DNA of 64,000 nt, from NCBI GenBank assembly GCA_046563655.1, contig CM102285.1, positions 372,001 through 436,000 of the forward strand. The letters are read 5' to 3'. This DNA comes from Yuukianura sp. NJ FZ-2021. Its lineage: Eukaryota. Position numbers and translations under genes: made by a program. Numbering within the stretch: position 1 is the first letter of the stretch; every line of letters starts with the position of its first letter. Of the stretch, positions 22,601-61,484 are shown in pieces. A model generated the notes under the pieces. The model made no database searches. It worked only from the letters and a program-made list of their open reading frames with translations, and was not told where the DNA came from.

Positions 22601-24376
22601 ATAGTCACGAAGTGTGAACGTAAATGAGCATCAATTATGACCAATTATGAAGGCTGAGAGTTTTCCGAAGGTCCTTCCTGGATAAAGTCCCGAGCAGAAT
22701 GCTGGACACGGATAGAATGTTGGACATAATCGATTAAGTTTAAAATTACATTGAAAAGTTAACGTCATGACCGTGACTTTGAAGTAATGATGACTTTAAC
22801 AACAAATCTCAGTTTTATGAACAAAAATTAACACAAATCTTAAAAAAAGCAACATTTTTTAAAAGATTTTTTTGAAAAATTTTAAATTTTTGTTTTGATT
22901 TTTTTTGCAGTTGATATTGATGAACGACTGGAGTCGACGCAGCGAAATTCAGCGTCACCGGATCCTTGGGCTTTTGGTTTTTATCTTCATGACCTCCGTG
23001 ACCTTGTTTCTGGGAGTGTGCGGATGGTATGCCAATTCAAGAAGTACTGGAAATACTGGCAGTACTGGAACTGAAATCAGCGATTCAGCGTCTGGGAAGT
23101 TGGGAAGTACTGACATGAGCAGTTCTCCGTACAACTTTAGCCTGGGACTCCACAATGCTTTGTTCATGGTTTCCGAAATTGGCCTCCTCAGTATCCAGAC
23201 GCTGCATGCTTTGACAATTTGTGTCTTTGAGCATCTGAAGCAGAAGTATCAGCGCAAGCGTCCTGGATCGCTGCCACGCTTGAGCAACAGCGAAGATCAG
23301 TCGATGGCCCAAACAATCAACTACTACTTTGATATCACGGCACTGCTCTTTGATTTGGTAAGAACCAATCACAGAGCTGGAATCCAAAACATGACTAGAT
23401 TGCTGATTCTAATCGCTGATTTTTGTTTCTAATCGCTGGTTTTAGGTGCACCATGTCCATATGCTGATTTGCTGCAACTTGTTCCTGTCCATGACATCGC
23501 TGATTGTCTCTCTCCAGATGAGATCTCGAGCACGACAGATTCATGCGCTGTTGAAAAAGCGGAATTCCTTCACGTGGCTGTCCAAGCACATTGCCAAGTA
23601 TGATCAAAATTTTGAAAATTTTTGAAAAAGGGAAATTTTGAAATTTGAAAAAGTAAAATTTTGAAATGTGTTGCTAGGTACCCAGATTTTGTGGAGACGG
23701 GAGCAGAGAGCCGAGAGGAGAACTGTGCAATATGCTGGGACTTGATACTTGTGCAGAAAGCAAAAGTACTTCCTTGCAAGCACATTTTTCACGTGTACTG
23801 CCTCAAGAAGTGGCTTTTGATCAGCATGAACTGCCCCACTTGTCGCCTTGCGCTGATCGCTGATTCTGAAGCGTCGCAAAAGGAGGGAGAAGCCAGGGGC
23901 GGAGCTCCAGAGTTGCTAGGATACCGTACGATCCAATCCCAGACGGATTCTGGGGTTTCTCCAAACTGGACAAACGCTACTGGATTTGTTCGGTGGTTGG
24001 GATCCACAAATGGACGAGGCTCCAGTAATAGAAGGTGTGAAATTTTGAAAAAAAATGAAAATTTTGAAAAAAAAATGAATATTTCGAACAAAAATTTTTT
24101 TTTGAAAAATTGTTTTCTTGTGTAATCTAGTCAATCGTTTGTATTTCTTTTTCAGCGTCTCCACCTCCACGTTCGGTTTCGCTCTTTGGAGATTTCGTGG
24201 TTCAAGACTGGACGGTTGAAGTGAGTTAATTTACATTAAACTTCTTAATAAACTAAACTTAAGTTAATTAACTTTTAGTTAGTTAATTGATTAACTTTTT
24301 GTGTTTTTAGGCTACTGAAGTGAACAGAGCTCAAACGCAAACAATAACACAAACGAATACAATTAAGACCGACTGA
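19685..24376 (+). CDS. AMFR: AMFR/gp78-like ER membrane RING-H2 E3 ubiquitin ligase
   Basis: Exons 19685-19990, 22148-22405, 22911-23357, 23446-23597, 23678-about 24030, then short terminal exon(s) whose phase is uncertain (stop about 24219 or 24376). LDRLPLPSLRVYAGLS and MKDQFWNLIFYKVVFIFGVVNVQ resemble gp78. RING-H2 CAICWD...LPCKHIFHVYCLKKWL...CPTCR. Confidence 0.88.
21082..21362. mobile_element. Nested TA-flanked Tc1/mariner-pogo-type MITEs
   Basis: Outer TA-CCGTAAA...TTTACGG-TA (21082-21362), inner TA-CTGTAAAACT...AGTTTTACGG-TA (21143-21293). Related ends occur at about 25663 and 48551. Confidence 0.65.
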
Positions 24377-37000: not shown

Positions 37001-40000
37001 CTCGAAATTGAACTCCACTTTGACGGTGTTCCAATTTTTACGGTATTTTCTTGAAAACTTTTCGAAATTTTAATTTTTTTCACAAAGTTGACCTTGTTCT
37101 TGATTTTACAGAAACTCGACCCGAAGCTGCTCGTGAGCATTGCAAAACTGATTCGACGGTATTTGGTTCCCCCTGGAGTGATTTTCCTCCGTAAAGGAGA
37201 GGTTCGTCGTCAAATGTACATTATTGGACGAGGCAGCGTGGCGGTAACTTTTCAAATTTTGAACTTTTGTTAAAAAAAAGTTTTCTAAAGTTTTTCGAAA
37301 AACTTCTTTTTAAAAAGTTGTTTTCGCATCAGGTATTGTCGGATAAGGACCAAACTGTGCCTTTGAACGTTATTGAGGAAACAGGGCACTTCGGAATCCG
37401 TGACCTCTTGTTCGGAGAACCAGCGCATCACGATATCAAAACTCTGAGTTATTGCATTTTCTTTGAAGTTGAACTGCGAGACTTGTTTGAATCGATGAGA
37501 GGAGATACTGACCTCATGCACTCCGTTGAAGAAGAAAAGGCAGGAAGATTCGAAATTTTAAAAAGTTTAGAAATTTTAATTTTATGATTTTTTTTTTTTG
37601 AAAATTTATGAAATAGGAAAAGCTGCAACCAGGAATCGACGCTATGCTGAAACTGTTTTCGTACAGAAATCGTACGACACAAAACGACTCCCTTCACTCC
37701 ATTCCATCTTTTATCGATTTTCCAAGAAACAAAGACGATAATAAACCGTACTGCAGCTACGAAGAGTACGAAGAAGTCTTCAACGGATTGAAACGACCGC
37801 GATTTTGGAGGTTTTTTAAAAAAAGAAGAAGTTTTTTTTCGACAAATTTTCAAAATTTTGGTTTTTAGGTTCATTCTGATGAGGCGAACAATTCATCCTG
37901 TTGGAATGTTTGCCAAAATCTGGGTATGCTTCATGAGTCTCGTGGCTGCTCTGAATATTGCAATGATGGTGGCCGAAGTTTTTGGTGGGCGGAGGAATTC
38001 CAACCACTTGTATATCATGTGGGATTTCATTGGAGCCATTGACATGTGAGTCACACATGCTTGAGACTCAGAAAAAAAATAAACCTAGTGGGACTCGAAC
38101 CCACATCGCTTTAATCTAGGGGGAGCTCTAACCATTGAGCTATGAGGTTCCTATTTGATAGAATTGGAAGGCTGCCTAACACACCAGGCATTCATGGAGG
38201 TGTGTGGAAGGACAGTGCCTGTTATGGTAGCCTTCCGATTTTACCCTGCTACTGTTTCGGAACCTGATAGCTCAAAGGTTAGAGCTCTTCCTGGAGTGAA
38301 GGTGATGTAGGTTCGAGTCCGACTCGGTTCTTTATTTTTTTTCTGCACTGTCATTCTTTATCTACAAAGCATGTGAACTGCGAACCTGAGCTAACTTTTT
38401 TTCAGATACTTCAAGTTGCATTGGGCTTACTACAAAGAGAGCAACATGCTCATCAGTCATCCACTCAAAACAGCAACTCGCTACATTTTCAAAAGAGAAT
38501 TTGTGTTTGACTTGTTCGTGACGGCGCCTTTTGAACTCATCGTTCCGGTTTTGACTGGCACGCATTGGCTTGGTTACTCAAAAACTGCTGGATGGCACAG
38601 CAAACTCCGCTGGACACGATTTGGCCAAGTGATGCGCATCCCCGCAATTGTCGTCATTTTTCATAACATTTTCAAAATGAGGAAATTCCTTTTGTGAGTT
38701 TTTCAAAATTTCGAAAAATTGATTTCAATTTCATCAATTTTTCAATTTTTGGTTTTGTGATTTAGGTTGGTGTCGTACATTGCAATTACGCTGTTCATTT
38801 GTACAATTCTGGCAAGTTTTGCTGAGACGAATGCTTGTCCTGTTGGTGAAACGATTTTCAAAGAAGGAGATCAAAATCGGCTTCCATTTTGCAAACAAGG
38901 GACTTACATGCGGGTCAAAGGTTACATTTTAAAATTCAAAAATTATGTTTCAAATTTGAACACTATAAAAATTTTTTTGAAAAGTTGGAAATTTCTGAAT
39001 TTTAGAAAGTTTTGGTATAAATACACCAACAAGTCGGTGGATCGTTGGAATTTACTATGTCAGTCAAGGGATGTTCAGCGTTGGGTTTGGAGACAGTACG
39101 AACTTTCACTTAAAATTTTAAAAAATTTTGATTTTTGAATCTGATATTTTAGTTTTTCAAAATTTTGATTTGTTCTGAAATGCAGTTACGACTCTGAGCG
39201 TTGGGGAAATGAAGCTACTAATTTTTGTTTGCTTTTTTGGTAAGTGTTTAGTACAAACTTGTTACTAAACTAAAAATTTTGATGTTTTTTTGAAATTGTG
39301 TCACTTGGTTTAGGATTTGCAATCCTGCGATGTATTCTGTCTGATATCACTGCTGCTGAAGTGGACATTGATGAAGTTCGACACAACTACTTAGAGCAAA
39401 TCCTTTGTCTCAAACTCATCATGCTCAGAGAAAAAGTTCCAAAGAAAATTCGAAGGTATTTTTTTCGAAAACGACATTTTTCAGACAAAAAGTAAAAATT
39501 TTTTAACACTGTTTTGACACTTTGCTTTTGGAATTTTTAGAAGCGTCCTGTCATACATGTATCACACTTGGGACTTGTCAAAGGTCAGCTTTTTATTTTT
39601 ATTTTTTTGAAAATGCTGGTTTTGAAAATCAAAATGTGAAATTTCTTTTTCAGGGTTTACAACCACGTCAACTTTTTAGTGATTTGCATCGTAAGGGAGG
39701 AAATTAAAATTTGGAAACTCTTTCTTGATTTTAATTTTGACAATTTTTTTTTTTTTTTTGGAAATTTTTAGCTGCTCTGGAAGCTGATTTGTTCAGAGTG
39801 GTTGCGGGAGACAGTCTTACAAAGGTAAAGTGTAGAATCAGAACAATTCTTAAAAAGTTGGAATTTTGAAAAGTCAAAATTTCTTGAACAACTGAATTCA
39901 AAATTTTGGATTTTGAACTTTTAGATTCCAATTTTTCACGGATTGAGAGAAAATGTGCTGCGGACAATTTGCCAGTACATGAACACACTATTTTTTCGAA

Positions 40001-43000: not shown

Positions 43001-45521
43001 CTTATTTCCAAAATAATACGCTAGAAATTTAGAATGTGTGATGGTGTGTTCAAAAAACACTATTTTGGAATTTATTTTTCAAAATCACCCCTATTTTTCA
43101 AAATTTTTTTAACTCATGACTTTTTTTTAAATCGGCCACATTTTTCAAAATTTTTCTAACTCATGGCTGAGGACGTTACAATTTAAAATCTACCGTATGG
43201 TAGTCCAAAACCGTTACTAGATAGAGCTAAAACTTTTGAGAGTATAAACATGAGTAGTAACTTTTACCCTGCAACTTCTCATTAGTATATAATTGATTAA
43301 ATTGTTGTATATAAATTATATTTAGTTGATTAAATTTTAAGTAGTAGTACTAATTTTAATTTTAAGTACTATATTTTAATAAATATAATTTATAATAATA
43401 TTTTTTTTTGAAACTCCCAGGTTCCTTGGACTTCTTCGTTTCTTACGACTGGTGAGTTAAAATAACAAATTCTCTTAGGATTCAATGCAATTATCAATTT
43501 AAAAATTTAAAAATTTAAAAATTTGTGTTTTTCAGTTTTACTTTTATCGGACGCAACTTGCCAAATCAAGTGACCTGCGCACAAGCGTCTTCAAGCACAA
43601 AGTGTCCCTGTCAATGTCAACTTTTATGTTGGTCATCAACGGAATTGCTTGCTACTTCTACTCACTTGCAATCTGTACTTGCACCAATTCTGAAAAGAAA
43701 ATTAACTGCGGAGATGACGACATTTACGAAATGTGTAGAGCTGGAACCTGGACATACGAGTGTAAGAGGAATCCATGACCTTTGACCTTTGACCTTTGCA
43801 CAGTTTGTTTTTGTTTTTTAGTTGTTTTCACTCATGAACTGCAAACTCTACGACGACTCCAACCGTGGCGGTGGTACGTGCGCAGTCTCTACTGGGTAAT
43901 TACGACTGTGTCAACAACTGGATTCGGCGATATCACGCCGATCAATGCCGAAGAAGCCCGACTCGCCATTTTCACAATTTTTTGTGGCGCTTTCATCATT
44001 TCTGTCATTCTGAGTAGTTTTGCCTCCGGAATTTCTTCGTTGAACAAAACCTACAGAGAGTATTTGTACAAAGTCAATCTCCTCTTGGTAAGCATTACAA
44101 ATTTTCAAAAAAAAATTGAATTTTTTTAAAAAAATAAGTTTTTTGAAACTTTTTTTTTGTAGAAACACATGGGAAACATTGGAATGAGTAATGAGCGGAG
44201 ACATCAAGTCATTTCGTACTTTGTGATGCGGTGGGAACGGTGCCGCGGTGTGAAGTACAGTGACTGTACGAGCGCCTTGCCGACAACCATGGGAACCTCG
44301 GTTTGCTACTTTCTCTACTTTCCTGTTGCATCCAAAGTAAGTTTTTGAAATATTTTTGAAAAATGAAATTTTTTGGAAAAAATCGATTTTGAAACACTCT
44401 CCTTCGGTTTTTATGAAATTTTGATTGTTTGCAGTGCAAGTTGTTTACAAATGGACTGGACTCGATGTTCATGCGAGAGCTGTGTGCAATGTTTACTCAT
44501 GAAATGTTCATTCCGGGCATTACGATTGTCAATGAAGGATATTTGGAGACGATAGAAACAAATGACGGTGCGGATTCGATCGCCACTGGACGGATGTTCC
44601 TGGTCTACCGAGGACGAGTGTCGTCTTACACCAAGGACAAGGAAGGGCGGGAGTTTTTGGTCGAAACTTATGGAGACGGAGAAGTGTTTGCCAAGGGATC
44701 CGTTCTCTTCTATGACTTGGCCTACACTAAGGTAACAACGTAGCATAATGTGAGGTTCAGGCATCACATGGCTTGAGAGACAAAAAAAAATACAAAACCG
44801 AGTGTCACTCGAACCCACATCGCTTCACTTCGGGAAGAGCTCTGACCATTGAGCTATCAGGTTCCATTCGGACAGGATGGAATCGGAAGGTCTTGTGGCG
44901 TTTGGAAGAGAAGAGCTGGGATAGCCGGTCTTCCAATTGCTCCATGTTGAGATACTGGAGGAAGGAGCCGATAGCTCAAAGGTTAGAGCACTTCCCGGAT
45001 AGAAGAGTGTTGGGTTCGAATCCCGCTCGGCGTCTAATATTTTTTCACACTATTTTTCACTCAGTCCTCAACCTGTGAGCCCCAGTGTCACAGCTACTGG
45101 CTAGCTAAATCTGAAATGTTGAAATTTGACCTTTGACCTTTGACTTTTGCAGTCGTACCGAGCGGAGACATACACAGAAGTGCTTGGACTGTCGCAGAGT
45201 GATGTTTTGCATTTGGTAGACAGCTACGATGGATTTGCCAACAACATGCTCACTCTGATGATGGACGAGTATCCAAGGATCAAGAATGTGTCTATCTTTG
45301 AGAATCGGGAAAAGTCCAAGAAGAAGGGCGACAGAGAGTCGCATTCGAGCACTAACATATCCGGAGCAGCGTCTGCGACGAGTTTTGGAAGTGGTGGGAC
45401 AACCCGGACGGGAGAAGATGCCCCGAGGGGAGTGTCACCTTGGACACTCGCATTCGCCCTCGCCAAGCAGAAGAAGGCACAGGCAGAGTCATTTCAAAAG
45501 TTGGCGGGAGAAGCCATGTAA
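31003..45521 (+). CDS. CNGK: Four-repeat K+-selective cyclic nucleotide-gated channel (CNGK / tetraKCNG-like)
   Basis: Many short exons encoding four TM-pore-C-linker-CNBD modules. Pore motifs TTGYGD (split by intron 32201-32280), SSGFGD (36284-36301), SVGFGD (39077-39094), TTGFGD (43914-43931). No internal start/stop structure suggesting separate genes was seen, but not every junction was verified. Confidence 0.85.
32955..33292. mobile_element. TA-flanked MITE with repeated CCGTATTTCC ends in a CNGK intron
   Basis: TACCGTATTTCC repeated several times, with inverted end CGAGGAAATACGGTA. Confidence 0.55.
34365..35511. mobile_element. Tc1/pogo-type MITE interrupted by a foldback element
   Basis: TA-CAGTAGACCCTCTCAAATTGCAACT ... 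AGTTGTAATTTGAGGGGATGTACTG-TA. Confidence 0.7.
34397..35331. mobile_element. Long-TIR foldback non-autonomous transposon, Sola2-like
   Basis: Near-perfect inverted arms 34397-34823 and 34895-35331 around a 71-bp spacer. GAG...CTC termini and 4-bp TSD TGTG (34393-34396, 35332-35335). The superfamily is inferred from the termini only. Confidence 0.85.
38054..38375. mobile_element. Foldback element with two outward-facing tRNA-like units (copy 1)
   Basis: Minus-strand unit 38083-38151 and plus-strand unit 38259-38330, each with A box TAGCTCAAWGG, B box GGTTCGAGTCC and a downstream T run. Outer inverted repeat CACATGCTT/AAGCATGTG. Confidence 0.8.
40464..41763 (+). mobile_element. Non-autonomous hAT transposon with BED zinc-finger remnant and internal satellite
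   Basis: TIR CAGGGTTCGAA/TTCGAACCCTG, 8-bp TSD TGAAAAAC (40456-40463, 41764-41771), TTACGTAA subterminal repeats. ORF 41202-41402 DPIWNDF...CKLC...MKSHLQKH resembles a BED finger. Confidence 0.92.
40666..41161. repeat. 35-bp palindromic tandem repeat, about 14 copies
   Basis: Unit TTCTTCGAGCAGTCTGCTCGAGAAATACCAGGATA, containing the palindrome TCGAGCAG-T-CTGCTCGA. Confidence 0.95.
42120..42462. mobile_element. TA-flanked pogo/Tigger-like MITE
   Basis: TA-CAGTAGAACCTCTCATT ... AATGAGAAGTTTTACTG-TA, with a second left end at about 42238. Confidence 0.6.
44764..45078. mobile_element. Foldback element with two outward-facing tRNA-like units (copy 2)
   Basis: Minus-strand unit 44797-44865 and plus-strand unit 44964-45034, with A/B boxes and T runs. 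Outer loose inverted repeat TCACATGGCTTGAG / CTCAACCTGTGA. Confidence 0.8.
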
Positions 45522-55408: not shown

Positions 55409-55754
55409 CTCTGGCTAAATTGAAAACGAAAAGTTTGTGCTGAAATTTCGCGCCTTTGGCGCGAATACCGCGACGTGAAAAAAATGAAATGACGCTGACC
55501 TTGAACAGAATTGCACAAATAAAAACCTTATGAAATTACTTTACATTCTCAATTTTTAGCTAAACCTTAAAATTGCAAAATTGAATACGTTGCCTTTTCC
55601 TATAACAATAAAAACTCTTTTCACATTCCTTCAACCAATTTAATATTTTATTGAATTTAACTATAATAATTATAGTTAAATTTATATTTAATCAAATTGG
55701 TCTTCGTCGAGTTTTGAAACTCCAATTTTTTCACGATTTCTTGAAAATCGGTAA

Positions 55755-57509
55755 TTACTTATTCCTCTTCCGTTTTTGTTGATTTTTTGCACCGTCCAGA
55801 ATTTGCGGTTCGTAGTCAAGTTCGGTTGCTTTAGCAAACAATTCAGCATACATCTCCAGTCGCTGGGTCATCTAAAAGTCAAAGGTCAAAGGTCATGTTA
55901 GTAAAGGTCAAAGGTCAAATTTTATGTCAATGAACTTTACACTCACCCGAAATCCCCACATGTCTTTGACCTGCTGACAGAGATTCAGATCTATTTCTAC
56001 AACAAGGAGTCCATCACGAACACGGGAAAGTTCCTGGACAATTAAAAAGTTGTTGAATTTAAAAATCTTGAAAATTACAATTTCGAAAATTAATTTTTTG
56101 ATGAAATTTACAGGAGTTCTGGCGCCATCAGGAGCAGTAACGTACGACGATCCATAAAAATGTGCAAAAGTGTCGTTCGTCCATTTTTCATCTCCGGATG
56201 TAAATACTTCCGTTCCAACACGGTTGATGGCACAAGTGAAGTAACTGTTGGCAATGGCCGCATTCCGAGCCTAAGTTCAAAATTTCACAATTTTAGAAAA
56301 TATAAATTTAAAAACGTGTTTAGGATTTCATTTTAAGAATCGCTTACTTCAATTCCCCAAGTCGGTTCAGTTAGATCACCGACAGTTGCTGAAGGATTGA
56401 ACACAATTTCTGCGTTGTTGAGTCCATACATTGTCCAGTTGAGCGGATGATGTCTTCCAAAACCAATGTCAACAGCGATTTTGCCAAACGGAGTCTGAAA
56501 TACAGGTCACGAGTAAAGGTCAAAGGTCAAGGTGAAGGTCAAAGTGCAAAGGTCATTGACCTACCTGGAATACTGGATGACCCAGGGTTGACTCCACGTA
56601 GTACGTGGATTCGATGAAGCCACCCACTCTCGGAATGTGGTTTTGCCTACTTTTGCCCAAATATTTTCCGTTGTTGCCAATAACAACAGCCGTGTTCCAG
56701 AAAACACCGCCGTCGTCACGCTCCAGGATCGGCGAAACTATGACCATGTTGTATGTTTTGGCCAATTTCTGCACAAGAAAAAAAATTGTCATTAGGTTAG
56801 TCAGATTTTAGGCTAACAAGGTTAATCGATTAGGTTAACTAATTAGGTTAACTGGGTTGTTAGGCTAACTTTCAAAAAGTGAGTCGTGGGTCCTTCTTCA
56901 GCATGTTCGTAGTACTCCGTCCAGGGAAGTCTCTCGCGCGAACAAAAAGCAACCGGCGTGGCTGTAAAACGTAGGAAAAATTGAGAAAAAGACGCAAACT
57001 TTAGCGATTCGCGTTTTTACGCACCTAAGGCGCGTAAGCTACCTTACTCCATGTTTCCTGGAAGCAGAAGATGTTGACTTTCATGGCCGCTGCAGCTTTG
57101 ATGGCATTCGCTGCCAAACTGTACAGCGCTGATCGCTGCTCCTTGATCGGTGAATCAGTGGGAAGCGGCAACTTGTTTTGAAAAAGTGCCACGCGCGTGA
57201 GGCGCGGAGGACGCAACTGTTCTGGTTGTGCAGTGAACTGTGCCGTTTGAATGCCAAAATCAGCTGATGGCGTCACAGCGATTCGCCAAGCTTCAACTGG
57301 AATCTCCAAACTTCTAAATTTAAAAAAAAACACAGTTTTTCAAAAAACCATTTAAAAAATGTGCGTTTTAATTTTCTAGTCCAAGTTTTGTACAAATTGT
57401 GAACTTACTGCGGAGGATATGCAGTACCATAGAGCACTTTCCAAACTTTCTTCAACTCTGCCTCTGGCAAATACTTGACCAAAATGGATTTTACACTTTC
57501 CATTTCCAT
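55755..57509 (-). CDS. Beta-ureidopropionase paralog with substituted catalytic residues (probable pseudoenzyme)
   Basis: Eight in-frame exons colinear with the neighbouring copy. FQETW retained, but KSRQNHIP and [11 protein letters not shown] replace the catalytic Lys and Cys motifs. Confidence 0.9.
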
Positions 57510-58113
57510 TTTCAAAATTGAAATTGGAGGTTTCGAAATTTCAGAATTTGGAAAAAATGAAATAAAGAATTGGACAACTGTAAGTTAAGAATATATGCTT
57601 CCAATCGGCTTCTTCTCCTTCGCAACACTGACACTGTAAACTTCTCAGAAGCTTGAGTCTAAAGGAATTATGATTTCTTAAATGTATGAATTTGATTTCT
57701 CAGGTTAATTGAATTGAAAAAAAAAGTAAAAAGTTAAATGAATTGAATAGTAGACTGGCTTATAGAGTTGTTTTGGGTTGAGTTTCGAAGATATTTTTTT
57801 CCAAACACACACAAAGTAAATGTAAGTCGTTGATAAATGTAAGTTTAACTGTGAATAACTTTTTGTAAAAAAAAAAACTCATGAAATTACTTTTACATCG
57901 TCAATTTTTAGCTAAAAACTAAAACTAGAAATGCAAAATTGAATACGCTGCCATTTCCAGTAACAATAAAAACTATTTTTTTACATTCCTGCAACAAATT
58001 TAACATTTTATTGAATTTAATTATAATAATTTGACCTCAGTCCATAGAATCGCTGCGAGTTCTGAAAATCTGAAATTTCTTCAACGATTTCTTAAAAATT
58101 GGCCATTTTTTTT

Positions 58114-59861
58114 TTACTCTTCTTCTTTTTTTGCTGAATTTTTTGAACCGTGAAGAATTTGGGGTTTGTAGTCCGGTTTGCTTGCTTTAGCAAACAGTTC
58201 AGCATACATCCCCAGTCGCTGGGTCATCTAAAGAAGGTCAAAGGTCAAATGTTAAGTTAGTGTAGACCAAAGGTCAATGACCTCGGTACCTTCTTTTAAA
58301 AACTTACACGAAATCCCCACTTGTCCTTGACCTGACGACAGAGATTAAGATCCATTTCTACGACCAAGAGCCCATTGCGAGTACGAGACAAACCCTGCAA
58401 TGTTCCAAAGGTTTTTGAAATTCAAAATTTCGAAAATTTAATTTTGAAAAGTACATTTTTTAAAAAAAGTTTACAGCAGTTCTGGCGCCATCAGGAGCAG
58501 TGACGTATGACGATCCATAAAAGTGTCCGAAATCGTTGTGCGCCGGTTTTCCATCTCCGGATGTAAATTCATTCGGAAATACTTCCGTCCCAACACGGTT
58601 GATGGCACAAGTGAAGTAATGGTTTGCAATTGCTGCATTACGCGCCTGAATTAAAAATTTCAAAAAACAAAAATTCAATATTTTGCTTATAATTTGAATC
58701 AAAATTTTGAAAAATCGCCTACTTCAATTCCCCAAAGTGGTTCACTTAGATCACCGACAGTTGCTGACGGATTGAACACAATTTCGGCGTTGTTGAGTCC
58801 ATACATCGTCCAGTTGAGCGGATGGTGTCTTCCAAAACAAATGTTGATAGCAATTTTACCAAATGGAGTCTGAAATGACAAACGTCAAAGGTCAAATGTG
58901 AAAGGTCAAAGGTCATTGACCTACCTGGAATACAGGATGACCCAGCGTTGACTCCATGTAGTAAGTAGATTCATTGAAATCCCCCACTCTAGGAATGTGA
59001 TTTTTCCTACTTTTGCCCAAATATTCTCCGTTGTTGCCAATAACAACGGCTGTGTTCCAGAAAACATCGGCGTCGTCCCGCTCCAGGATCGGCGAAATTA
59101 TGACCATGTTGAATCGTTTGGCCAATTCCTGTACAAGAAAAAGTGATATTAGGTTAGTCAGATTAGGCTAACTAGGTTAACTAATTAGGTTAACTGGATT
59201 ATGTTAGGCTAACTTTTAAGAATTGAGTCGTGGGCCCTTCTTCAGCATGTTCGCCGTACTCCGTCCAGGGAAGTCTCTCGCGCGTACAAAAAGCAAACGG
59301 CATGGCTGTAAAACAGAGGAAAAATTGAGGAAAAAGAGGTGAATATTGGCGATTCGCGTTTTTTACGCTCCTAAGGCGCGCAAGCTTGCTTACTCCATGT
59401 TTCCTGGAAACAGAAGATGTTGGCTTTCAGCGCCGATGCAGCTTCGATCGCTTTTGATGCCAAGCTGTAGAGTGCTGATCGCTGCTCGTTGACCGGTGAA
59501 TCAGTGGGAAGTGGCAACTTGTTTTGAAAAAGTGCTACGCGCGTGAGGCGCGGAGGACGCAACTGTTCTGATGCAGCAGTGAACTTTTCCGTTTGAATGT
59601 CAAAATCAGCTGATGGCAACGCAGCGATTTCCCTCGCTTCAGCTGGAATTTCCAGCGTTCTAAATTTTAAAAAAAAAGACACTTAAAAGAAGAAACAAAC
59701 AATTTTTAAAAAATGCGTTTTCATTTTTTAATCCAAGTTTTCTAAAAATTGTAAACTTACTGCGGAGGATATGAAGTACCATAGAGCACTTTCCAAACTT
59801 TCTTCAACTCTGCCTCCGGTAAATGCTTGGTCAAGATGGATTCCATACTTTCTATTTCCAT
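58114..59861 (-). CDS. pyd3: Beta-ureidopropionase (beta-alanine synthase, nitrilase superfamily)
   Basis: Eight exons. Intact triad motifs [25 protein letters not shown] and [12 protein letters not shown], plus EARNAAIAN and [11 protein letters not shown]. Confidence 0.95.
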
Positions 59862-61484
59862 TTTCAAAATTGAGAGGTTTCAAAATTTCAAAAAACCTGA
59901 AAATGAAATCAGAAATTGGAAAATTGTTCACACTGCTCCCAAACAGCTGTTTGTCCTATCTCACACTGACACTGGAAGCTTGAATAGCAAAAGCTGCGTA
60001 TTCCTTATAGCCTTTTTAGATCCAAGTGACCTTGTGCAGATTGACCTTCCAGAAGGTCACACATAATCTCCAACTTCATGCATCTTCACACTCTTATGTG
60101 TTAATGCCATATTTCACATTTCTTTTGAAACTTGTAGAAAAGTAGATAAGAATTACACGCATAAAGTTAAGAAAAGTTAAGAATTTAAAATCGCCAATTT
60201 CAATTTACAGTTTCATGCGATTAGCTAAACAGGAATTAGCTAAACATGCAATATAGTTGAACACTTTTTAAAGTCAGCAGCGGTAAAGAATTTCTGTTCG
60301 ATTGAGTCATGTTCGGTGCTTTTCAAAAGCCAATTTCGCAAAAAGTTTTTTCTTTATTACAACAAAATTCTTTTTAGAACAAAATTGGTTTTACGACAAA
60401 GCTTTTTTTTTTGGTAAAGTTTACTTTCTCTAAGAATTTTTTCCCTCTACACACCTTTTTTCTACTGAACATGAGTCTTGATTCCTTATAAAGTGGAAGT
60501 GAAGTATTAATAAATTAAATAAGTTATTGATTTGTTTGTTGTTCCTGGAATCTGTCCAAAACAGAACCTTATGAGAATGTGTTTTTGTGGATTCTGGAAG
60601 TTACAACTTACAAACACAGCAATCAATCCTCGTAACTCCCGAAGCCTCATAATGTTCCTTGTCTACAGAAATAAAACCATTACGCCCTATGGGGCTTTTC
60701 TTTTTTAGTGCAATTTATTGCCGGGATTTGTTAAAAAACGAAAAAAAGAGAGAGAAAGCGAAGAGAAAGCGAAAAAAAGGAGGGAAAGAGGAAAAACGGA
60801 AAAGATTTGGGAGGAACTCCGTCGATTCAGTCTAAAAACTCATTTTTTTAGAAGCTGAGAATTTTTGAATTTTTGTGAGCAAAATAAAAGGAAAAAAAAT
60901 GGGGAAGAAACTTTTTTGAAGAAAGTTCTTTTAGAATATACTTTTAAAATTTTTCTAACGAAGTAAATAATGTTGTTGTTGTTTTCAAAAATACTTGTGC
61001 TTTGATACGTTTTCAAAAGCTGGACAAAGTTTATGGACGGCTGAGTAGCAGTTTGTGTCATGTTTTTAGAAAAGATTCTAAAATCCTAAAAATAGGAACA
61101 ACTTTTCAAAAAAAAACAGTTCAGAAAAAACTGGTTGCTGAACGACACTGAACTCTTCGCCAAGATCCAATCTACTCAAATGCATTGCAAATATGATACT
61201 TCGATTCGAAAAACAGTTCGGAGCCAAGTGGATCCTACTCGCAAATAGTTTTTGCAAAAAAAAGTTTGCAAAAAGTTGTGCAAAAATAAGGAGCCAAAAT
61301 GTGAATGGAGCTCAAAACTTAGAAGTCACTTTTGTTTTTAAAAATAGTTTAGAAAACAGTCAGAATACGCGGTGAAGGATCTTTTCAATTTCTAAAATTT
61401 TAAGAATTAAAAAAAAAAGTGTCAAAATCAAAAACTAAACGTCTGAAAATCAAAATCAAGTCTTTATGAAGTGTGTTGAAAAAG

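Follow-up and report, generated by a model that had tools for sequence, protein, structure and literature searches.

A tandem copy of beta-ureidopropionase in Yuukianura sp. has lost two catalytic residues and is a candidate pseudoenzyme

Uracil breakdown ends with beta-ureidopropionase, an enzyme that produces beta-alanine and also degrades fluoropyrimidine drugs. Its activity is controlled by the assembly of dimers into larger oligomers. According to excerpts of a study of the human enzyme (PMC10741476), the dimers are inactive and substrate drives the formation of larger oligomers, in which the entrance loops come to lie buried at dimer-dimer interfaces, with E207 placed in the active site; the outward-facing active sites at the oligomer ends stay incompetent. 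The same excerpts describe the C233A and C233S variants as inactive yet able to assemble on substrate, and the H307A, H307N, and H173 variants as stable, inactive, confined to the dimer, and unresponsive to substrate (PMC10741476). [quoted passage not shown] Here, we analyzed a stretch of 64,000 nucleotides (nt) from Yuukianura sp. NJ FZ-2021 (GCA_046563655.1, CM102285.1:372,001-436,000, forward strand; referred to here as the window), which carries two tandem genes homologous to beta-ureidopropionase (copy A and copy B). Copy B has the full Glu-Lys-Glu-Cys tetrad, and in copy A the catalytic Lys and Cys are replaced within an open frame. We favor, with moderate confidence, the reading that copy A is a catalytically dead paralogue that arose by a lineage-specific tandem duplication and has been kept as a pseudoenzyme.

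Both genes lie head-to-tail on the minus strand within a tandem duplication at 55517-59981, whose two units (55517-57643 and 57868-59981) are 79.7% identical across 2188 columns. Every frame-compatible GT..AG pair between open six-frame pieces was enumerated, and both units gave the same 8-exon model. Copy A (55755-57509; 1173 nt, 390 amino acids [aa]) has exons at 57509-57409, 57313-57048, 56961-56870, 56768-56565, 56494-56348, 56270-56112, 56033-55947, and 55871-55755. Copy B (58114-59861; 1182 nt, 393 aa) has exons at 59861-59761, 59659-59394, 59305-59214, 59128-58925, 58869-58723, 58645-58475, 58394-58308, and 58227-58114. The exon lengths are the same in the two copies (101, 266, 92, 204, and 147 nt for exons 1 to 5 and 87 nt for exon 7), except for those of exon 6 (159 nt in copy A and 171 nt in copy B) and exon 8 (117 and 114 nt). 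The introns (55 to 101 nt) occupy homologous positions and are bounded by GT..AG in all 14 cases (7 of 7 per copy), intron 3 having the donor GTTAGC in copies A and B alike, and neither gene contains an internal stop. The splice signals have a nematode-like appearance. The statement in the initial annotation that copy A retains its eight exons, splice sites, and frame is thus borne out by the exon model. No third beta-ureidopropionase copy was found in the window by tblastn with both proteins.

Homology to beta-ureidopropionase extends over the whole length of both copies, including the N-terminal extension. Their best PDB matches are the human (8PT4 and 6FTQ) and Drosophila (2VHH) enzymes, and their mean identities to 82 homologues are 57% (copy A) and 62% (copy B). 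The best homologues come from animals. PF00795 (CN_hydrolase) matches exons 4 to 6 of both copies, with exon 5 of copy A reaching only 17.7 bits, which is below the cut-off of 23.2.

Residues were numbered on the koala orthologue (P0007, 384 aa), in which the residues named in the literature by human numbering stand at identical numbers. Where the human enzyme has its nucleophile Cys (C233), copy A has GGT, encoding Gly232 (56462-56464, minus strand), and copy B has TGT, encoding Cys (58837-58839). The catalytic Lys (human K196) corresponds to CAA, encoding Gln195 (56643-56645, minus strand), in copy A and to AAA, encoding Lys (59003-59005), in copy B. These codon coordinates are exactly those given in the initial annotation. 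Cys and Lys occupy the respective columns in all 82 outgroups. The tetrad at 119-196-207-233 therefore reads E, Q, E, and G in copy A and E, K, E, and C in copy B. Among 200 database homologues of 340 to 480 aa that were aligned with the two copies (202 sequences in total), the tetrad is E-K-E-C in 195, and at the C233 column copy A alone carries a different residue, one further sequence being gapped.

Copy A also departs from the enzyme in entrance loops 2 and 3. In loop 2 (56613-56621, minus strand; coordinates computed by hand), GDFNE has become GGFIE, i.e., D204 is replaced by Gly and N206 by Ile, with F205 and E207 kept. Loop 3 (56160-56207, minus strand; computed by hand from the exon model) has lost 12 nt in frame between 56205 and 56204, corresponding to four loop residues (FPNE or PNEF), and carries Gly to Glu (E303), Pro to Trp (W305), Ala to Thr (T306), Asn at the His307 equivalent (N307; codon at 56175-56177), Asp309 to Thr, and, in the window allele only, Gly311 to Ala. 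An alignment to human 8PT4 likewise places the Asn of copy A on His307 and a gap at 293/294-297; in the 202-sequence alignment, His307 is kept except in copy A and two others. The segment after the catalytic Glu (56930-56959, minus strand) reads TTPVAFCS for TMPFAFCT (human M123, F125, and T129 to T123, V125, and S129), and further changes are D231 beside the lost Cys (NIC to DIG) and T264. All of the shorter motif changes listed in the initial annotation (TMPFAF to TTPVAF, GDFNE to GGFIE, NIC to DIG, and the loss of PNEF, which may equally be written as FPNE) are present. Its changed 10-residue motif is likewise present in the window, except that two of the replacements, Asp303 and Ala306 of copy A, belong to the window allele only, the other samples having Asn and Gly like copy B.

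Around the pocket, copy A keeps the equivalents of E119, R130, F205, E207, R236, H237, H238, T299, S300, and D302, which are invariant in the family. Of the entrance-loop residues D204, F205, N206, S300, D302, and H307, all are found in copy B and three (F205, S300, and D302) in copy A. The loop that contains human His173, a position occupied by His in 66 of the 82 outgroups, is shorter by two residues, among them that at 173, in both copies (approximately 56709-56717 in copy A and 59069-59077 in copy B). Given this missing residue, regulation of the active copy B may depart from the human model.

The sequencing runs listed for the organism amount to five rows, all of DNA, from two studies. 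We aligned contigs of four DNA runs (X1 to X4), in which both studies are represented, on 55500-60000. Both key codons are unchanged in X1 record 3 (56396-57072, with 0 other letters), X2 record 10, and X3 record 19, and the Gln codon is covered, unchanged, by X4 record 27, from the second study. The 12-nt deletion is spanned without gaps by X1 record 2, X3 record 18, and X4 record 26, and X2 record 12 (57443-58227) joins exon 1 of copy A to exon 8 of copy B. Contigs over copy A contain 0 to 7 other letters per record, none of which falls at the two key codons. Because X1 to X3 may derive from the sample behind the window assembly, it is X4 that provides independent support. At 55661, 55992, 56164, and 56174, all four runs disagree with the window, of which a few letters are therefore allele-specific or erroneous. 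Nevertheless, the key codons, the deletion, and the bridge between the copies are all covered by contigs, the Gln codon and the deletion by contigs of both studies, and we regard it as highly improbable that the substitutions or the tandem arrangement are assembly or sequencing artifacts; assembly error, by which the initial annotation had allowed that the substitutions could be explained, does not account for them.

Copy A occurs in both samples, at a divergence from the window of only about 0.7% (from X4). The window allele of copy A has four derived changes (Ile337, Glu324, Ala306, and Asp303; 55992, 56032, 56164, and 56174, respectively) at which the other samples are like copy B, which indicates that the window represents another haplotype or strain than the contig runs. 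Among the variants listed from the four runs, copy A shows no stop and no exon insertion or deletion (indel).

Of 389 aligned codons, 74 are not the same in the two copies, which show a nonsynonymous divergence (dN) of 0.11, a synonymous divergence (dS) of 0.26 to 0.32, and a dN/dS ratio (omega) of 0.34 to 0.43. The noncoding parts of the duplicated unit are 77.7% identical (Jukes-Cantor distance, 0.264), and their 889 columns contain 22 indel events. In a maximum likelihood (ML) tree with the 82 outgroups, copies A and B form a sister pair, in which the branch of copy A (0.236) is 3.8 times longer than that of copy B (0.062). When the differences were polarized by outgroup residue frequency, rather than by ancestral reconstruction, 29 were A-derived, 12 were B-derived, and 33 were ambiguous (binomial p = 0.012). 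With half of the pairwise dS assigned to each branch, whole-gene omega was 0.40 to 0.47 for copy A and 0.18 to 0.25 for copy B. Taken alone, the whole-gene rates would suit a living gene under partly relaxed constraint as well as one that died at some point along its branch. The raised omega and the longer branch would both be expected if copy A is now nonfunctional (unexpressed or recently dead), its frame being open by chance and its constrained phase either over or mimicked through gene conversion from copy B.

Simulated neutral decay gives a first measure of that alternative. At a divergence of 0.032 to 0.056 per site, the amount explaining the whole-gene excess of copy A, only 8% to 1% of the runs preserved the start, frame, and splice dinucleotides, a share that fell to at most 0.6% with an indel rate derived from the introns. 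In copy A, by contrast with the expectation for a dead gene, the frame and splice sites are all intact, and so is AATAAA, a putative poly(A) signal at 55647-55652 (minus strand), about 103 nt past the stop and conserved with that of copy B (58007-58012). The 5' flank of copy A (57510-57643, minus strand), a putative proximal promoter, is 73% identical to that of copy B (59862-59981) and contains conserved blocks.

The distribution of the changes is more informative. We split 300 core codons (human numbering 60 to 365) into near sites, i.e., those at most 5 residues along the sequence from the tetrad (119, 196, 207, and 233) or from entrance-loop 3 residues 299 to 309 as named in PMC10741476, and far sites, i.e., the rest. 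The 61 near codons contain 13 A-derived, 0 B-derived, and 2 ambiguous differences (omega, 0.68 to 0.78 for copy A and 0 to 0.08 for copy B); the corresponding numbers for the 239 far codons are 11, 11, and 10 (omega, 0.16 to 0.31 for copy A and 0.14 to 0.29 for copy B). Among columns that are at least 80% conserved in the outgroups, copy A is changed at 11 of 50 near columns versus 4 of 139 far columns (Fisher p = 1e-4), and copy B at 0 of 50 and 5 of 139, respectively. A permutation among conserved columns gave p values of 0.00015 to 0.0036 for radii of 5 to 10, and a nearest-neighbor clustering test, which is free of any site definition, gave 0.011 to 0.038. The division of dN/dS between active-site and scaffold residues, which the initial annotation had proposed as a test, thus shows nonuniform changes and a scaffold omega that is similar in the two copies and well below 1. 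Positive selection in the pocket was considered and rejected; omega at the near sites does not exceed 1, and relaxation therefore suffices as an explanation.

The two classes of sites also bear on timing. The near sites imply near-neutral evolution over 66 to 77% of the branch of copy A. Under scaffold neutrality over 70% of that branch, 67 far replacements would be expected, versus 14 to 26.5 observed (p <= 9e-9), and scaffold neutrality over 35% of the branch is also rejected (p <= 0.005). From the contrast between near and far sites, it appears that the active site was freed early (about 70% of the branch) with the scaffold still constrained. With catalysis lost early under a constrained scaffold, at least about half of the history of copy A would have been that of a translated protein in which the fold was of consequence.

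These results are difficult to reconcile with a copy that is simply decaying, for which the replacements should be uniform and the scaffold free to change for a third of the branch or more. Gene conversion from copy B fares no better as an explanation of the pattern, since active-site codons scattered over four exons could not escape conversion tracts unless they were retained by selection. Several points nevertheless weigh against retention. The division into near and far sites was set post hoc, when the changes had already been seen, and its distances are sequential, not spatial. The polarization uses outgroup residue frequencies and leaves 33 of the 74 differences ambiguous, the outgroups are all distant, the synonymous changes are unpolarized, and the per-branch dS is taken as half of the pairwise value. 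At the upper count, scaffold neutrality lasting 20% of the branch is compatible with the data (p = 0.18), as is the death of copy A within about the last fifth of its branch. Divergence is uneven along the unit (56034-57047 in copy A versus 58395-59393 in copy B), with introns 2 to 4 being about 85% identical, introns 5 to 7 being 67 to 74% identical, and exon 7 having a dS of 0.84, which suggests that the 5' and middle part underwent gene conversion in the past. The four additional derived replacements of the window allele affect conserved positions, among them the equivalent of Gly311, which is invariant. Among the recent variants listed for copy A (full-depth), 5 are nonsynonymous and 4 are synonymous, a ratio that fits neutrality (p = 0.12) as well as an omega of 0.2 (p = 0.28). 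A 1-nt indel in an A-run, 27 nt before the stop of copy A, places the last codons (8 in copy A and 7 in copy B) in different frames and has been tolerated. Finally, in searches of the protein database with single exons (copy A exon 4, copy B exon 2, and copy A exon 6), no A-like protein or near relative was found; the best identities were 59% for exon 2 (2 matches) and 79% for exons 4 and 6, and all of the matches were canonical enzymes.

On balance, we consider it unlikely that copy A is at present nonfunctional. The combination of catalytic residues lost in an intact gene with purifying selection on the remainder (under the post hoc partition) is that expected of a pseudoenzyme. It is quite likely, on this evidence, that purifying selection preserved copy A as a folded noncatalytic protein during the greater part of the period after the duplication. 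Because the scaffold is as conserved as that of the working copy, copy A is probably a noncatalytic protein still in use and not a decaying gene. The proposal of the initial annotation that copy A is a selected pseudoenzyme rather than a decaying pseudogene accordingly finds partial support, in that the gene has not decayed uniformly, the far replacements being equal in number (11 versus 11) and scaffold neutrality over the period of the freed active site being rejected.

For the favored reading, the sequence of events may have been as follows. Soon after the duplication, the active site and the three entrance loops of copy A would have been freed from constraint. Copy A would then have lost the nucleophile Cys, the catalytic Lys, the His307 equivalent, two residues of loop 2, and four of loop 3, the alpha-beta-beta-alpha scaffold staying as constrained as in copy B. 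What the retained protein might do is more speculative. By analogy with the human oligomer, we tentatively suggest that copy A pairs with copy B and caps or limits the oligomer. It would pair through the conserved core dimer interface and, because its His307 equivalent is Asn, would be unable to build the entrance-loop dimer-dimer contact. An A:B dimer would thus have one face that cannot extend the helical oligomer, and the resulting cap or limit would alter the share of competent copy B sites and the output of beta-alanine. A narrower version, which we hold to be doubtful, is that copy A acts as a natural end-cap subunit of the helical oligomer, occupying its end positions and setting both its length and the share of competent sites. 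The end positions would suit copy A because, in the excerpts of PMC10741476, the sites at oligomer ends are incompetent anyway.

The H307N equivalent and the remodeled entrance loops 2 and 3, which form the dimer-dimer interface, disfavor simple co-assembly into a normal oligomer, and since both copies lack the His173 loop residue, the human assembly model may not transfer to this pair. The same Asn307 and remodeled loops would be expected if copy A is under selection independently of copy B, binding or buffering N-carbamoyl-beta-alanine or beta-alanine or having acquired a new role or location. The scaffold constraint predicted for such a protein is identical to that of the favored reading, and the family-invariant pocket residues are kept. 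The C-terminal tails also differ, copy A ending in a basic QQKRKRNK before its stop (55755-55784, minus strand) and copy B, in another frame, in an acidic SAKKEEE (58114-58140). We take QQKRKRNK to resemble a nuclear localization signal. The basic tail, however, stems from the 1-nt indel described above and varies between samples (K381I in X4). Overall, this alternative to the favored reading seems to us rather unlikely; as for the activity itself, a role of copy A that does not involve copy B, e.g., ligand binding through the retained E119, R130, F205, E207, R236, H237, and H238, would be nearly as likely as capping.

Some further observations concern the locus and its surroundings. A splice-acceptor-like TTTTCAG lies about 45 nt 5' of the ATG of copy B (approximately 59900-59912), and the aligned site in copy A (57545-57557) reads TTTTCCA; the copy B site might reflect trans-splicing or an exon further 5'. 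Introns 4 and 7 of both copies contain GGTCAAAGGTCA-type repeats (55875-55925, 56505-56555, 58230-58290, and 58880-58925). In every run, the bins holding these repeats showed a word depth raised several-fold and numerous loose ends, and the GGTCAAAGGTCA-type repeat is probably a dispersed short repeat of the Yuukianura genome. An Rfam scan of the window detected only three tRNAs (38080-38149 on the minus strand and 38261-38331 and 44965-45034 on the plus strand), and Pfam searches of 25 long window frames detected a RING-finger (23649-24125) and an LBP/BPI-like fragment (1827-2258).

Beyond the window, a CN-hydrolase protein of the beetle Psylliodes chrysocephalus (P0122, 392 aa) carries Gln, Arg, and Cys in place of E119, K196, and D204, respectively, in the alignment and retains E207 and C233. 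It may represent a second catalytically impaired beta-ureidopropionase paralogue. In metagenome contigs, the motif Ile-Gly-Phe/Tyr-Gly-Arg-His-His-Pro occurred at no fewer than 120 loci, and among those listed tblastn detected no beta-ureidopropionase homology, which indicates chance matches. A full-text search of the literature returned no description of a pseudoenzyme for beta-ureidopropionase or for the nitrilase superfamily, the ureidopropionase matches being judged by their titles and the beginnings of their abstracts.

Pseudoenzymes born by duplication are a well-known kind, to which copy A adds a member. It would also add a metabolic family to those that retain dead paralogues. In uniting the loss of the nucleophile with an H307N-type exchange on a scaffold under selection, it offers a natural probe of the beta-ureidopropionase assembly switch. 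If the end-cap proposal were true, copy A would be the first regulator of the prozyme type both in the nitrilase superfamily and in the catabolism of pyrimidines. The case further shows that a pseudoenzyme can be separated from a young pseudogene with two paralogues and distant outgroups alone.

The NIT4 partners of Poaceae keep the catalytic Cys. Natural heteromeric NIT4 complexes of Poaceae were reportedly described by Jenrich in 2007. The mixed helices of plant nitrilases described in the extract of PMC6214922 belong to the same superfamily as copies A and B and to a different branch of it. Compared with human UPB1 (8PT4 and 6FTQ) and Drosophila Pyd3 (2VHH and 2VHI), copy B shares E119-K196-E207-C233 and the three entrance-loop motifs. 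Copy A shares with them the fold-level sequence and the N-terminal extension, as well as the exon structure, and differs in having Gln196, Gly233, Asn307, Gly204, and Ile206 and in the absence of four loop-3 residues. Both copies differ from human UPB1 in lacking the H173 loop residue. Relative to the human C233A/S and H307N/A variants, as these are described in the excerpts of PMC10741476, copy A naturally unites a missing nucleophile with precisely the H307N-type exchange; the human variants are single laboratory mutations, whereas copy A carries 13 derived changes round the site and is known from its sequence. For the trypanosomatid prozymes, which belong to an unrelated family, complex formation and activation have been demonstrated (PMC5201418 and PMC3663545, in extract), whereas the evidence for copy A is sequence and its predicted effect is capping or limiting, not activation. 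What copy A would have in common with these prozymes is that it is a dead duplicate of an oligomeric metabolic enzyme that has probably been retained by selection.

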